Part shown: one piece after another, positions 1,579 through 62,005 of the stretch
Layout of the letters: each line of letters begins with the position of its first letter
How positions within the stretch are numbered: position 1 is the stretch's first letter
NCBI GenBank assembly: GCA_016176605.1
Contig: JACOWW010000005.1
Span: 127 to 64,126, forward strand
Origin: Candidatus Saccharimonadota bacterium
GTDB lineage: Bacteria; Patescibacteriota; Saccharimonadia; Saccharimonadales; UBA10212
Direction of reading: 5' to 3'
Length of the DNA: 64,000 nt
The notes under the pieces: generated by a model
Seen by the model: only the letters and a program-made list of their open reading frames with translations
Told to the model about the DNA's origin: nothing
The model's database searches: none
Translations under genes and position numbers: made by a program

Positions 1579-5067
<3,489 letters not shown>

Positions 5068-10378: not shown

Positions 10379-10452
10379 GCTACGCCCCGTACCAAAACCT
10401 GAGTGGAGAAGTCTGCAATCAGATTACGAAACATCAAGTTATGGTGCTGGGG
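10379..10452 (+). repeat. Hairpin element copy A (family of four)
   Basis: It is the reverse complement of copies B-D and lies 3' of the plus-strand oxidase gene. A further 20-bp stem encloses it (10357-10376 / 10452-10471). Confidence 0.8.
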
Positions 10453-11523: not shown

Positions 11524-11560
11524 AAATGCGCGGGCAAAAATGCCCGCGCATTTTGCTTTT
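11524..11560 (+). terminator. Rho-independent terminator
   Basis: The hairpin is AAATGCGCGGGCA-AAAA-TGCCCGCGCATTT, followed by TGCTTTT. Confidence 0.75.
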
Positions 11561-11602: not shown

Positions 11603-11700
11603 GCATTTTGCATTTTACAGTTTGCATTTATCATTAATTTTTCATTGATCAATGATCATTGTTAATTCATTGAAAATTGTGAATTGATAATTGATAATTG
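11603..11700. repeat. Degenerate heptanucleotide (period-7) tandem tract
   Basis: It reads GCATTTT GCATTTT ACAGTTT GCATTTA TCATTAA TTTTTCA TTGATCA ATGATCA TTGTTAA TTCATTG AAAATTG TGAATTG ATAATTG ATAATTG. Confidence 0.75.
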
Positions 11701-16488: not shown

Positions 16489-16562
16489 CCCCAGCATTAA
16501 AGCTTGATGTTCCATAATCTGATTGCAGACTACTCCACTCAGGTTCTAATGCGGGGCAAGCC
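16489..16562 (-). repeat. Hairpin element copy B
   Basis: See the finding. It lies in the intercistronic spacer between the DUF360-like gene and secG. Confidence 0.8.
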
Positions 16563-16570
16563 ATACATTT

Positions 16571-16654
16571 ACCATTAACTATTAACCATTGATCGTGGAT
16601 AACGGAAAACGGATAACGCACGGTAAATGGTGAAAGGTGAACGGTCAACGGTTG
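16571..16654. repeat. Degenerate heptanucleotide tract
   Basis: It reads ACCATTA ACTATTA ACCATTG ... GGATAAC GGAAAAC GGATAAC, then GCACGGT AAATGGT GAAAGGT GAACGGT CAACGGT. Confidence 0.75.
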
Positions 16655-18696: not shown

Positions 18697-18793
18697 ATTT
18701 GCTCCAATATGATAACAAAGGTTTGTCACCTTAAACGTAAGGTGTTATTATTTAGCGGACTATTAACTAACAGGAAGAAAGGAGCAGCCAAAA

Positions 18794-18847
18794 ATGAAAA
18801 TTGAAAAATATTACCTAGCAGACCTGGTTGCTCCAGCAGCCTGTTAA
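18794..18847 (+). CDS. Possible 17-aa upstream ORF (MKIEKYYLADLVAPAAC)
   Basis: A strong GAAAGGAG SD lies 7 nt before the ATG. The ORF lies 65 nt upstream of the ABC exporter gene. It is too short to score. Confidence 0.3.
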   Translation: MKIEKYYLADLVAPAAC

Positions 18848-29738: not shown

Positions 29739-30003
29739 ACCTAAAGAGTACCGAGTCCTTAGTCCTTAGTCCACAGCTAACCCCCCATCATTGACTGTCA
29801 AGCGAGCCCCAAAAATGAACAAACCCCGAGCAAACGGATGAAGCTAGGCTCAAGCGAGAGCCGAATAAAGCCAAAAGATAGTCCTGAACCTCATCTAAAG
29901 AAAGTGAAGGGCCGACTGTAAGGAGTCCTTTTGGCGCGGCGCAGGTCCAGTTTAGATTCAATCGTGCTTTGCGAAAGGTTTGTGAGGTTTTGGGGTGAGC
30001 GCC

Positions 30004-32291: not shown

Positions 32292-32705
32292 TTAGCACAT
32301 TATCCGTTGGTGAGGGGGCGCGTCTAAAAAATCCTGTAAAATGGCTGCCGCCGCCAGCGCATGCTCATCATAGGAGCTCTTAGCTCTTAGCTCATAGCTC
32401 TTAGCCTTGATGCTGGTCAATGCCTCGTCCTGGAAGTAAAAAGGCAAGCCAATCTCTTTTTGGGCAGTTTTTACCCACTCCCGTACCCAACGGGTTTGAC
32501 CGGTGTCTTCGCCGGATAGATTCCGGGGGAGACCAATCACAATAGCTTCCACTTTATTTTGTTTAATTAACTCTTGCACCCCGGCTAAAGCCTCACTGGT
32601 TTTAACAGTTTTTAGCGGCTCAGCCAGCCGCGCCGCACTCGAGCCGCGCGCCATCCCGACTTTAGCTGCTCCGACGTCAAGGGCTAGTATTTCCATTGCT
32701 GTCAA
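32292..32705 (-). CDS. ruvX: Putative pre-16S rRNA nuclease / Holliday-junction-resolvase-like YqgF
   Basis: It has 'ILALDVGAAKVGMA' and 'IVIGLPRNLSGEDT' motifs and the expected length of about 137 aa. Confidence 0.85.
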   Translation of the reverse strand: MTAMEILALDVGAAKVGMARGSSAARLAEPLKTVKTSEALAGVQELIKQNKVEAIVIGLPRNLSGEDTGQTRWVREWVKTAQKEIGLPFYFQDEALTSIKAKSYELRAKSSYDEHALAAAAILQDFLDAPPHQRIMC

Positions 32706-34424: not shown

Positions 34425-34497
34425 AAAGTTCAAAAACCAAACACCAAACACCAAACACCAAAAATTGAAATTTGGTAATTTTAGTTTATTTGAAGTT
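34425..34497. repeat. Degenerate heptanucleotide tract
   Basis: It reads AAAGTTC AAAAACC AAACACC AAACACC AAACACC AAAAATT GAAATTT GGTAATT TTAGTTT ATTTGAA. A second short run, GTTTGAA GTTTGAA, lies at 34541-34563. Confidence 0.75.
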
Positions 34498-34570
34498 TGC
34501 CCGGCCTTCGCAGCCAAGCTTGCTTCGGCGAAGTAGGCAAGTTTGAAGTTTGAAGTTTTGAATAACGAAT

Positions 34571-38182: not shown

Positions 38183-38256
38183 CCCACGCACCAAAAACTT
38201 GAAGCTCTATAATCTGATTACAAACTACTCCGCTCAGGTTTTGGTGCGGGGCAAGC
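38183..38256 (-). repeat. Hairpin element copy C
   Basis: It fills the mnmA-alaS spacer. Confidence 0.8.
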
Positions 38257-38267
38257 AGAGGTAGAAA

Positions 38268-39392
38268 CTAAACAACAATCCCGCCGCCAAGACAGACGTT
38301 ACCAGAGTAGAAGACGGCGGATTGGCCGGGAGTTAGGGCGCGGATTTCTTCATCAAGTTTAACTAAAGCTTCAAAATTACTTAACAAGTTAAGTTTTTTG
38401 ACTGGAATAAGTTTTGCCCGATGGCGTGTTCGCACCTGTAGGGACTGTTCCTGCAACGGTGCTTCGTTAATCCAGTGGATATCAGCCAGATTAATCTGGT
38501 TGCTCCAGAGCTTTTTGTCTTGGAGGTCGGTCGTTACGTAAACTTCGTTCTTTTTCATATCCTTGCCAGTGACATAGTATGGTAAACCACCACCCACATC
38601 TAGACCGTGGCGTTGACCGATGGTGTAGAAAATAGCCCCATCGTGCTCGCCAACTGTCCACCTCCGCCGGCCGGCGGATTGGTCAATGATTTTGCCCGGC
38701 TTTTTATCAACATATTGGCTTAAAAAATCTTTAATGCCAATCTTACCTACGAAACAAATGCCCATACTTTCTTTTCGATCGGCCGAAACCAGTTTGTGCT
38801 TTTTGGCTAGCGCCCGAACCTGCGGCTTGATTAAATTACCAAGCGGGAAGATAGTTTTTTGTAGAGCTTCTTGAGTTATGCGGTATAAAAAGTATGTCTG
38901 ATCCTTATTGGCGTCTTTTGCTTGCAAAAGACGAGGAACTAGTAATTGGGAATTAGGAATTAGCTTTTTGTCTGCCTTTTTACTATTTTCTATTTCCTGA
39001 TTGCTATTTTCTATTTGGGCGTAGTGGCCGGTGGCTATATAATCCGTTCCGTCATCAATTGCCGTTTCCAAAAATAGCCGAAACTTGATTTCTTGGTTGC
39101 ACATGATATCCGGATTTGGTGTGCGGCCAGCTTTGAATTCGGCCAGCATATAGTCAACAACTTTGTGCCTGTACTGCTTTTCGAAATCGTACATTTTGAA
39201 GTCGATGCCTAGCTGTACGGCCACGCGCTTAGCGTCCTGATAATCATCTTTCCATGGACACTTAACTCCCGGAAAATCCTGGCTCCAGTTCTTCATATAG
39301 ATGCCAACAACTTCATAGCTCTGCTGTTTGAGCAGCAAAGCCGCCACAGAGCTGTCCACTCCTCCGGATAATCCGACATATACCTTTTCCAT
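38268..39392 (-). CDS. mnmA: tRNA 2-thiouridine(34) synthase MnmA
   Basis: It has the PP-loop 'GLSGGVDSSV', 'ATGHYA' and 'KDQTYFLY'. It carries an internal low-complexity insertion. Confidence 0.95.
   Translation of the reverse strand: MEKVYVGLSGGVDSSVAALLLKQQSYEVVGIYMKNWSQDFPGVKCPWKDDYQDAKRVAVQLGIDFKMYDFEKQYRHKVVDYMLAEFKAGRTPNPDIMCNQEIKFRLFLETAIDDGTDYIATGHYAQIENSNQEIENSKKADKKLIPNSQLLVPRLLQAKDANKDQTYFLYRITQEALQKTIFPLGNLIKPQVRALAKKHKLVSADRKESMGICFVGKIGIKDFLSQYVDKKPGKIIDQSAGRRRWTVGEHDGAIFYTIGQRHGLDVGGGLPYYVTGKDMKKNEVYVTTDLQDKKLWSNQINLADIHWINEAPLQEQSLQVRTRHRAKLIPVKKLNLLSNFEALVKLDEEIRALTPGQSAVFYSGNVCLGGGIVV
38941..39016. repeat. Heptanucleotide-repeat tract inside the mnmA coding sequence
   Basis: The plus strand reads GGGAATT AGGAATT AGC... 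and CTATTTT CTATTTC CTGATTG CTATTTT CTATTTG. It encodes 'QIENSNQEIENSKKADKKLIPNSQLLV'. Confidence 0.7.
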
Positions 39393-39500: not shown

Positions 39501-41190
<1,690 letters not shown>

Positions 41191-41997: not shown

Positions 41998-42082
41998 CCC
42001 AGGCCGCCTCTCTTCGAGTCTGAGCCTGAGGGCTCATCCCTCAGAGTCGAATGACCGGCGGCAAATCTCAATTTACAATTAT

Positions 42083-42155
42083 CCTCAGCATAAAATCTTG
42101 AAGCTCCGTAATCTGATTGCAGACTACTCCGTTCAGGATTTAATGCGGGGCAAGC
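42083..42155 (-). repeat. Hairpin element copy D
   Basis: It lies in the 259-nt atpA-atpG spacer. Confidence 0.8.
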
Positions 42156-42159
42156 AATT

Positions 42160-42250
42160 TTTAATGATTTATCATTGATCATTTTCCAATTGTTAAATGG
42201 CAAATGTGAAATCAACGGTGAATGGTGAATGGTGAATGGTAAATGGAGTG
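42160..42250. repeat. Degenerate heptanucleotide tract
   Basis: It ends with CAACGGT GAATGGT GAATGGT GAATGGT AAATGGA (42213-42247), directly 3' of the atpA stop on the transcribed strand. Confidence 0.75.
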
Positions 42251-61218: not shown

Positions 61219-61990
61219 CTAAAGTTCTTGCTTATGTTTTAGGTAAGTGTTATAATGTTCAACGTACCTTGAGTTTATGAATTCATTCCCTCTTTGGGGC
61301 TTACCAATTTTGTGAAAACACGCAGTGCAGGTTTTTGCAAAATTGAGAGGAGTAGCCACAGCGCTAAGCCGAAGCTTTTGTCGATCCGGCAAAACAAGGC
61401 AAGCTCGTAGGCTTCGACGAGGGGCTGATTTCAGCTTGACGGTGTACTTTACCAACTAGTTTGCAGGTCGGAATGCACTGAACGTTATCCGGTGCAAACC
61501 AAACAAATGCAATAGCATTTATTTCAGGAGGCGGTTTACTAGCTGCTTTCCGAAAGCGATTTTCAAATCCTTTCAAGGCTTTGGCTTTCGCACCAGCTTA
61601 CGTCTAAAACACGTTTAGCCGCGCATACATCGACACCAGATAGAAGTTAATGCGTGTCATATCATCTGGTTGCTCGAGACTTACTTTCCATAAGTCTCGT
61701 TAAGACTTCGGAATAGGAAACGCCACTTTTTGACCATTTACCGGTAGCATTTCCAAATAAGGGCCTGCCATGCAAGATTACTCAATCTGTGAACAATCCT
61801 TGACGCAATCAAGCAATTTTTTGCTTCTCACCGTATCGTTCAGATACGCTTTGTCGTAAGAAAATTACTTGCTTATCGCCAAATTATTGCTCTCAAACCT
61901 TGAGTACCTTACATGGCAGACCCTATCAAATGGCCTAAACCTGTAGAAGACTAGCTAGATAAAACATCGGACCCGGTTGCAATCACCGGC
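61219..61990 (-). pseudogene. Probable decayed gene, with protein-like fragments in several frames
   Basis: Minus-strand fragments such as 'ILHGRPLFGNATGKWSKSGVSYSEVLTRL', 'DDMTRINFYLVSMYARLNVF' and 'KGFENRFRKAASKPPPEINAIAFVWFAPDN' are separated by stops or frameshifts. The identity is unknown. Confidence 0.25.
61228..61256 (+). promoter_or_regulatory. Near-consensus extended -10 promoter TTGCTT-17-(TGT)TATAAT facing an ORF-poor region
   Basis: The -35 box is at 61228-61233, TG at 61248-61249 and the -10 box at 61251-61256. Confidence 0.5.
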
Positions 61991-62005
61991 AGCTCCACCA
62001 AAAAC

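Follow-up and report, generated by a model that had tools for sequence, protein, structure and literature searches.

In many prokaryotes heptanucleotides outnumber all other classes of long simple repeats (LSSR), and polymerase slippage has been proposed to generate them (Mrazek, Guo and Shah 2007, as that work is cited in PMC4679880 and PMC4692102). Their excess in bacterial genomes has been reported since 2007 (PMC4679880, PMC4692102), and the original prediction that heptad tracts of this kind belong to no described system is to be withdrawn on that point. The tracts described here resemble the prokaryotic heptanucleotide LSSR, as these are outlined in the two later papers (PMC4679880, PMC4692102), in the diversity of their 7-base units, in being over-represented and mainly intergenic, and in their patchy occurrence across lineages. 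They differ from the LSSR outlined there in their host phylum, Saccharibacteria/CPR, and in that about half of the arrays occur as hairpin-forming pairs that have spread in cassette families. Locus counts quoted in the same papers are 169 sets in the ‘Maribeggiatoa’ draft genome and 186 in Xanthomonas campestris pv. campestris; the density found here, about 380 period-7 rows per Mb, is apparently several-fold above these published figures, the counting methods being different.

The GGGAATC and GGGGA(T/C)T heptamers of Xanthomonas and Nostoc form intergenic arrays of about four units that vary between species, some of them in convergent inverted pairs (PMC4692102). The arrays of the present genome share with them the intergenic location, the number of about four units, the variation of length and sequence at the same gene pairs and the inverted pairing. 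GGGAATC arrays are, however, built from a single G-rich unit capable of forming G-quadruplexes (PMC4692102), while those found here are AT-rich, of more than 100 kinds and devoid of G-tracts. In marine Beggiatoaceae and in some Cyanobacteria and Bacteroidetes, the TAACTGA repeats consist of 2–6 copies of one dominant heptamer, related heptamers being rarely repeated, and are placed a few bases upstream of start codons (PMC4679880). Short intergenic heptamer arrays, also within ribosomal-protein operons, are common to that system (PMC4679880) and to the one described here, which differs in that no unit dominates, that TAACTGA is found at one locus and that arrays lie at a median of 55 bases from the start codon that follows. 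The locus in question is a perfect TAACTGA x3.9 array in the rpmJ-rpsM spacer (C7:254662-254688, beyond the window), and its sharing of a heptamer with the marine Beggiatoaceae is probably a coincidence, given the 109 unit classes of this genome. Heterocystous cyanobacteria carry the STRR units CCCCAGT, TTGGTCA and CAACAGT, which are absent from the 40 commonest unit classes of the present host, a Saccharibacterium.

Rickettsia palindromic elements (RPE) are palindromic repeats that are tolerated in frame inside housekeeping genes and are not built from heptads. An in-frame insert of 23 codons in the gene mnmA (see below) is like them, by description only, whereas the elements found here have heptad arms and most copies are intergenic. 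REP/BIME and MITEs are small palindromic dispersed repeats, and the present elements are likewise dispersed, imperfectly palindromic, intergenic, non-coding and non-autonomous (review PMC3184786). Unlike REP/BIME and MITEs, their arms are tandem heptads and not unique sequence, neither terminal inverted repeats nor a target-site duplication could be established, and the genome that carries them gave no match to a transposase of the RAYT or another type. None of the literature searched reports heptad repeats in Saccharibacteria or CPR. The tracts are a very dense example of the known bacterial heptanucleotide repeat class, occurring in a clade of groundwater Saccharibacteria. What is new is the pairing of arrays into regular hairpins, their dispersal as cassette families and the presence of junction cassettes that keep translation coupled.

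The period-7 signal and the tracts of the window

The window, namely the whole stretch of 64,000 nucleotides that was analysed, is part of contig 6 of a 728-kb assembly in 7 contigs, 89% complete and here called G000. Tandem Repeats Finder (TRF) returned 39 rows for the window, 15 of them of period 7 against ~1.3 expected from genome-wide shuffles scaled to its length. The whole genome yields 275 period-7, 84 period-14 and 9 period-21 rows among 671, compared with 11–17, 1–6 and 0–2 in five order-3 Markov shuffles, and other periods are near chance. A second and stricter tandem detector, written for this analysis and covering periods 4 to 15, identified 91 period-7 tracts against 0 in shuffles, each other period giving ≤6 save the harmonic 14. 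Exact tandem duplications of 7 bases in intergenic DNA number 122 for 4 expected, those of 5, 6 and 8–12 bases being close to expectation; the excess is 30-fold, and 26-fold for exact 2-copy duplications. A genome-wide spectrum without a period-7 peak had been put forward as the outcome that would overturn the claim. The autocorrelation that was run has intergenic peaks at lags 7 (0.304), 14 (0.286) and 21 (0.279) over a background of ~0.26, and coding DNA has period 3 alone. Tract coverage amounts to 7.1% of intergenic bases versus 0.37% of coding bases. The tracts are thus real, pervasive and mostly located in spacers, as had been proposed, and have the attributes of heptad repeats: head-to-tail 7-base units, an excess over composition, the prominence of 7 among unit lengths and depletion from coding DNA. 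Copy number in the 275 TRF period-7 rows has its median at 4.1 and reaches 9.7 at most, and the units fall into 109 classes. Pooled together, the tracts are unbiased in strand, composition and position relative to genes; the distance to the next start codon ranges from 12 to 194 bases between the 10th and 90th percentiles, with a similar spread from the upstream stop codon.

All example tracts pointed out initially were found at or adjoining their expected positions, the one at 41105-41190 being weak, and in the heptad layout the units diverge through point changes while the register is kept. Strands are given below for the features to which one was assigned. The flagged tract at 11603..11700 comprises ~14 phased heptads running from GCATTTT to ATAATTG, seen both in TRF rows (GCATTTT x3.9 at 11603-11629 and ATTGATA x4.6 at 11669-11700) and in the heptad layout. 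It is flanked by a terminator-like hairpin and tRNA-Gly, is a member of the largest dispersed cluster (cluster 1, 66 loci), and its + strand folds with a modest edge over shuffles (z = -2.0). Just upstream of the tract and tRNA-Gly, at 11525-11560, the inverted repeat AAATGCGCGGGCA...TGCCCGCGCATTT is rich in G+C and looks like an intrinsic terminator. Three adjoining heptad arrays at 16566..16652 (TRF and layout) are arms of the CCATTAA / ACGGTGA family. A copy of a ~74-base hairpin core described in the next section is found at 16492..16561 (+ strand, BLAST) within the left heptad arm of this composite element, and near-identical composites of the 16566..16652 element occur at five further genome sites (C7:262690, 119628, 297951, 58760, 340595). 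Two TRF arrays are private, both being singletons in the clustering of loci: the short AAAAATG x2.9 in a divergent spacer (18790..18809) and the perfect AGTCCTT x2.7, with 100% matches (29754..29772).

The long hairpin at 34425..34565 (TRF and fold) has z = -3.6 on the + strand and -4.6 on the - strand, and a fold of this quality was reached by 0 of 200 shuffles. Its outer arms (CAAACAC)n and (AAGTTTG)n correspond to the TRF arrays CAAACAC x4.6 (34431-34462) and AAGTTTG x2.9 (34539-34558), each heptad providing 5 pairs and one 2x2 internal loop. The element at 41105..41190, in the spacer of a minus-strand operon, is a degenerate copy of the TCAATGA / CATTGAx family recognised in the heptad layout. 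Only its segment 41119-41135 (CAAGTGT x2.4) reaches the TRF score, the remainder being degenerate, and its fold is no better than that of shuffles; similar copies are present at C7:136595 and C3:22340. A second full copy of the ~74-base core, with heptad arms directly after it, occupies 42075..42160 (+ strand). The flanking arms at 42160..42250, TGATTTA.. / GGTGAAT x4.3 (TRF; GGTGAAT array at 42217-42246), belong to cluster 1 and fold on the + strand with z = -1.8. Elsewhere in the window, a tmRNA match (61421-62000) spans 580 bases on a model of 374 positions, and this gene may therefore contain inserted sequence.

Two of the tracts lie inside genes. In mnmA, a hairpin cassette at 38934..39016 (TRF arrays 38934-38963 and 38979-39016; cluster 2, 30 loci) belongs to the dispersed AGnAATn / CTAnTTn family and is inserted in frame, adding 23 codons (69 bases) that are lacking in 8 relatives (tblastn). 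In ruvX (ORF 32292-32705, minus strand), the TRF array AGCTCTT x4.4 at 32375..32405 lies in a variable loop near the C-terminus, the net length being the same as in the orthologue of the related genome G001. The suggestion that tracts are tolerated in frame because three heptads equal 21 bases, or seven codons, describes neither case, as one is a 23-codon insert and the other leaves the length unchanged. Beyond the window, the match to the catalytic domain of DinB, a Y-family polymerase, at C7:144279-144806 measures 528 bases compared with 435–453 in nearly all relatives; its length suggests an in-frame insert of ~25 codons.

Hairpins, dispersed families and junction cassettes

Of 114 pairs of neighbouring arrays, 67 consist of inverted partners (unit distance ≤2), for 21 expected, while the direct relatedness of neighbours is at chance level. 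About half of the neighbouring arrays are inverted pairs, and 50 hairpin loci with heptad arms were defined. Example folds are long, weak and periodic stems with 5 pairs and 2 mismatches or unpaired positions per heptad. The copy numbers of the two arms are uncorrelated (Spearman -0.17, n = 46, not significant), so that concerted growth of the arms gets no support. When all hairpins are pooled, the better-folding strand has no preference for sense (18 vs 14). Polarity is seen in individual families only, namely in the junction family treated below and in the CCATTTA family, which is oriented 21:7 such that the sense strand is the better-folding one, with G-U pairs.

Clustering of 216 heptad loci assigned 117 (54%) to dispersed families (of 66, 30, 7, 5 and so on) and left 99 (46%) as singletons. 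Matches in the DNA of other clade members were obtained for 66% of family loci, 14% of singletons and 12.5% of control spacer pieces. As family loci match relatives while singletons remain at the control level, the genome holds both shared dispersed families and private arrays. Two of the three origins entertained at the outset fit these data: a duplication process specific to 7 bases is supported by the 99 private loci with unique units and the 30-fold excess of exact 7-base duplications, and a mobile or copied repeat by the 117 family loci and their recurrence in related species.

The ~74-base hairpin core (CCCCAGCAC...GTGCGGGGCA, with the invariant apical loop TAATCTGATTGCAGACTAC) is present in 21-22 copies here, 8 in G001 and ~0 in the related genome G012 (BLAST). 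Its copies in the window are at 42075-42160, 16492-16561, 38193-38257 and 10405-10428. About 10 of the 22 copies have heptad arrays in their flanks, and some copies beside tRNA genes keep the loop with different stems. The same heptad is found on both flanks, where it is indistinguishable from the array itself, and no fixed-length target-site duplication was established. Rfam contains no family that matches either this core or the cassettes.

The largest well-defined family is the AGnAATn junction family, with 29 copies. Its full-length cassettes sit exactly between cistrons, many of them within the ribosomal-protein operon, whose tract density (38 rows in 20 kb) is ~4-fold the genome average. 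A cassette opens with TAATG, in which the upstream stop codon overlaps an ATG, followed by the mini-hairpin ATGCTNCGCAT, ~4.5 heptads, a loop and ~4.5 complementary heptads. Next come a small hairpin presenting the ribosome-binding site (SD) and the start codon of the downstream gene. Of 22 copies located between co-oriented genes, 21 point in the direction of transcription. A mini-ORF of 32–35 codons that begins at the ATG of TAATG is open through the cassette in all 13 aligned full-length copies; it ends in a stop codon overlapping the next start codon in 8 of them, and in the other 5 no stop codon occurs before the trimmed sequence ends at that start. Shuffles give a chance of ~10% per copy for such a frame to be open, the copies being related and not independent. 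Full-length copies have a constant size of 65–68 bases between borders, and hence act as fixed elements and not as hypervariable tracts. Variable positions fall at unpaired sites of the consensus fold, and compensatory change was seen in only 2 of its 28 pairs. A strict search of the genome collection for the cassette pattern retrieved two other species only, RIFCSPHIGHO2_12_FULL_47_17 and _47_16b (Candidatus Saccharibacteria bacterium). The heptad hairpins might be regarded not as passive debris but as clade-specific cassettes of fixed architecture that insert or exchange at operon junctions, namely mobile elements for translational coupling or RNA processing that are moved or made by an enzyme working in 7-base steps and that are conserved above the flanking genes; such a proposal, taken as a whole, is a long shot.

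Distribution, turnover and candidate genes

Density was expressed as TRF period-7 plus period-14 rows per 10 kb, for which the null is ~0.25. Four genomes are strongly rich, G003 (5.6), G000 (4.9), G005 (2.7) and G002 (2.0), and two, G007 (1.2) and G001 (0.95), are weaker but above the null. These six form one clade in the RpoB tree (support 94/92). The 14 other genomes of the same family and order have null-level density. For a 20-kb region in which G000 has 26 period-7 and 12 period-14 rows, 20 genomes belonging to 12 further families of the class gave 0–2 rows of period 7. The trait is limited to one clade among the ~40 genomes sampled. Values reach 18.8 in the ribosomal operon of a sister species and 10 in RIFCSPHIGHO2_12_FULL_47_17 and _47_16b. 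Non-coding DNA totals 99 kb in G000, whereas G001 has 66 kb and G012 62 kb of it.

An exact match to the IF-1 protein retrieved contigs that belong to the sister species and are 80–91% identical in the region. The rpmJ-rpsM spacer, which carries (CAGTTAT)x3.9 here, is occupied by (AAGAATG)n-loop-(CATACTT)n in the sister species, and ten sister-species contigs from different samples have an identical array in this one spacer. Copy-number variation among close strains, the hallmark of phase variation, was not seen at this locus in the ten contigs; exact-protein look-ups for strain variation found only the source sample for FtsA and none for L16. At the L17-L13 junction, sister strains have either the AGnAATn cassette or an unrelated AGCCTAG/AGCTCTT cassette within the same borders. 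In the sister species, AGCTCTT, which is the unit of the ruvX tract, makes up one of the two arms of a junction cassette (contigs L160, L162, L164). The orthologous L5-S14 cassette is ~96% identical between species while the flanking genes are ~79% identical, which argues for selection on the cassette or recent copying and not for neutral decay. Another sister-species cassette finds its nearest match at a paralogous junction of the present genome rather than at the orthologous one. Among the orthologous spacers of the window, those of G000 and G003 differ in their units, and those of G001 and G002 are without arrays and shorter. A different element was observed in the infA-rpmJ spacer of sister contigs L149-L158 (~1720-1870), where an insert of ~100 bases, bounded by ATCCCGTTAGAGC...GCTCTAACGGGAT, is located shortly before the start codon of rpmJ. 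It is found in 9 of the 10 contigs and is missing in L151 and G000, which indicates a presence/absence polymorphism of another hairpin element family.

MutS_V (mismatch repair), SbcD_C (hairpin nuclease) and RecJ_OB had zero matches in the 21 genomes of the order sample (G000-G020). A background without MutS, SbcD and RecJ matches is permissive in that it tolerates slipped loops and hairpins, but it is found also in period-7-poor relatives and so is insufficient alone to explain the trait. None of seven gene families tested over the 21 genomes tracks period-7 richness. XseA is patchy and uncorrelated with it (absent from G001, G004, G005, G006, G009 and G015), reverse transcriptase is uncorrelated as well, and DinB is present in nearly all genomes. 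Y1_Tnp (PF01797, IS200/RAYT-like) occurs in 4 of 6 clade members (G001, G002, G003, G007) and 0 of 6 other genomes of the family, but G000 and G005 lack it and the period-7-poor G013, G017 and G019 have it. Searches of G000, 89% complete, for Y1_Tnp, reverse transcriptase and other transposase-like matches found none. Comparison of G000 with the complete genomes G001 and G012 gave 274+57 candidate genes. Filtering on the partial DNA of other clade members left three proteins, of which one is a stand-alone four-helix bundle, one resembles deoxyribosyltransferases and one is a membrane protein; none is a convincing candidate.

The IS200/RAYT-like Y1 protein encoded at 176-799 of L116 (G002 contig C1) is 207 residues long and contains the HUH motif SHFHLL. 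G002 has 5 copies of it, several relatives carry it too, and a period-7 array, AGCTATT x4.9, lies ~700 bases downstream of the gene. Two ORFs of G000 beyond the window (C7:803-1345 and 2941-3552), absent from G001/G012, carry the LAGLIDADG-like motifs LAGFADGEGSF and LLGDGTL; judged by eye, they are possible homing endonucleases.

Origin of the heptad tracts and its significance

The preferred explanation, to which a guarded preference is given, is a clade-specific bias toward 7-base duplication combined with the spread of hairpin cassettes, selection filtering the sites and no sequence-specific binding function being needed. A duplication bias in the 7-base register, most simply strand slippage in replication or repair, would create arrays from arbitrary sequence, and fold-back or template switching could then turn arrays into hairpins. 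Some hairpins would become non-autonomous cassettes that spread by copying or gene conversion. Selection would merely filter the sites of survival, namely spacers, translation-coupled junctions and tolerant in-frame protein loops, and a sequence-specific binding function would not be required. The points in favour of this combined explanation are the strict intergenic period-7 excess, the 109 unit classes, the inverted pairing with periodic stems, the coexistence of families and singletons, the fast turnover, the orientation and open frame of the junction family, the restriction to one clade, the permissive background and the larger amount of non-coding DNA. Those against it are the identical arrays of sister contigs, the constant cassette size, the ~96% identity of one cassette, the uncorrelated arms, the lack of a trait-tracking gene and the occurrence of the permissive background in period-7-poor relatives as well; no slippage event was observed directly.

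The tracts might instead all be copies or fragments of purely mobile hairpins akin to MITEs or REPs, with arms that happen to be repetitive inside, mobilised in trans, for example by an IS200/RAYT-type Y1 protein, without any genome-wide 7-base bias. This is rather unlikely. Several observations speak for it: dispersed families are common to several species, cassette size is constant, a cassette can be more conserved than its flanking genes or closer to a paralogous than to the orthologous junction, sister strains have two different cassettes at one junction, the ‘private’ ruvX unit AGCTCTT is a cassette arm elsewhere, and within the family Y1_Tnp is limited to clade members, four of six having it and all six other genomes lacking it. 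Mobility of this kind does not account for the 99 loci with genome-unique units, whose matches to relatives are no more frequent than those of control DNA, nor for exact 2-copy 7-base duplications 26-fold over expectation, and it leaves unexplained why the arms are of 7-base units in every family. The transposase matches lacking in the 89% complete G000 and the occurrence of Y1_Tnp in period-7-poor genomes also weigh against it.

It is improbable that the tracts are selected cis-modules acting at the RNA level, for example intercistronic structures that adjust translational coupling or the stability or processing of mRNA, or that they are arrays to which an RNA- or DNA-binding protein attaches, as proposed for TAACTGA. 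Support for this possibility comes from the junction family, with its co-orientation in 21 of 22 copies, TAATG, SD hairpin, start codon and open mini-ORF, from the 21:7 orientation of the CCATTTA family toward the better-folding sense strand, from the ~96% conservation of one cassette between species and from the ~4-fold tract density of the ribosomal-protein operon. Close relatives with the same operons, however, have no elements, and the same spacer has wholly different units in sister species. Strand, composition and position are without overall bias, the sense preference of hairpins is absent (18 vs 14) and compensatory change is confined to 2 of 28 pairs. Co-orientation and a frame kept open would also be expected of selfish insertions that have passed a survival filter. 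Binding arrays for a nucleoid or partition protein, one of the functions first suggested, are unlikely because there are 109 unit classes, placement is unbiased and whole arrays are exchanged for unrelated units at the same sister-species spacer.

Chance, or a low-complexity artefact of AT-rich spacers, is refuted: tracts are indeed AT-richer (67%) than spacers overall (58%), but order-3 Markov shuffles that keep composition give ~15 period-7 rows against 275 observed, periods 5, 6 and 8–12 are at or near expectation, and relatives of similar G+C content are without tracts.

Since 2007 the surplus of heptanucleotide repeats in some bacterial genomes has stood as a puzzle without an explanation. 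The clade described here provides a compact natural comparison, with genomes of 0.6–0.7 Mb and the same gene order that have either ~5 arrays per 10 kb or essentially none, the rich and the poor ones differing by ~35 kb of spacer DNA. Such a contrast between otherwise like genomes makes the cause testable, be it a property of replication or repair or a mobilising enzyme. In practical terms, heptad repeats break assemblies and yield spurious small ORFs in CPR annotation. The junction cassettes show how selfish DNA can persist in extremely streamlined, operon-dense genomes through coupling of the ribosome across the insert.
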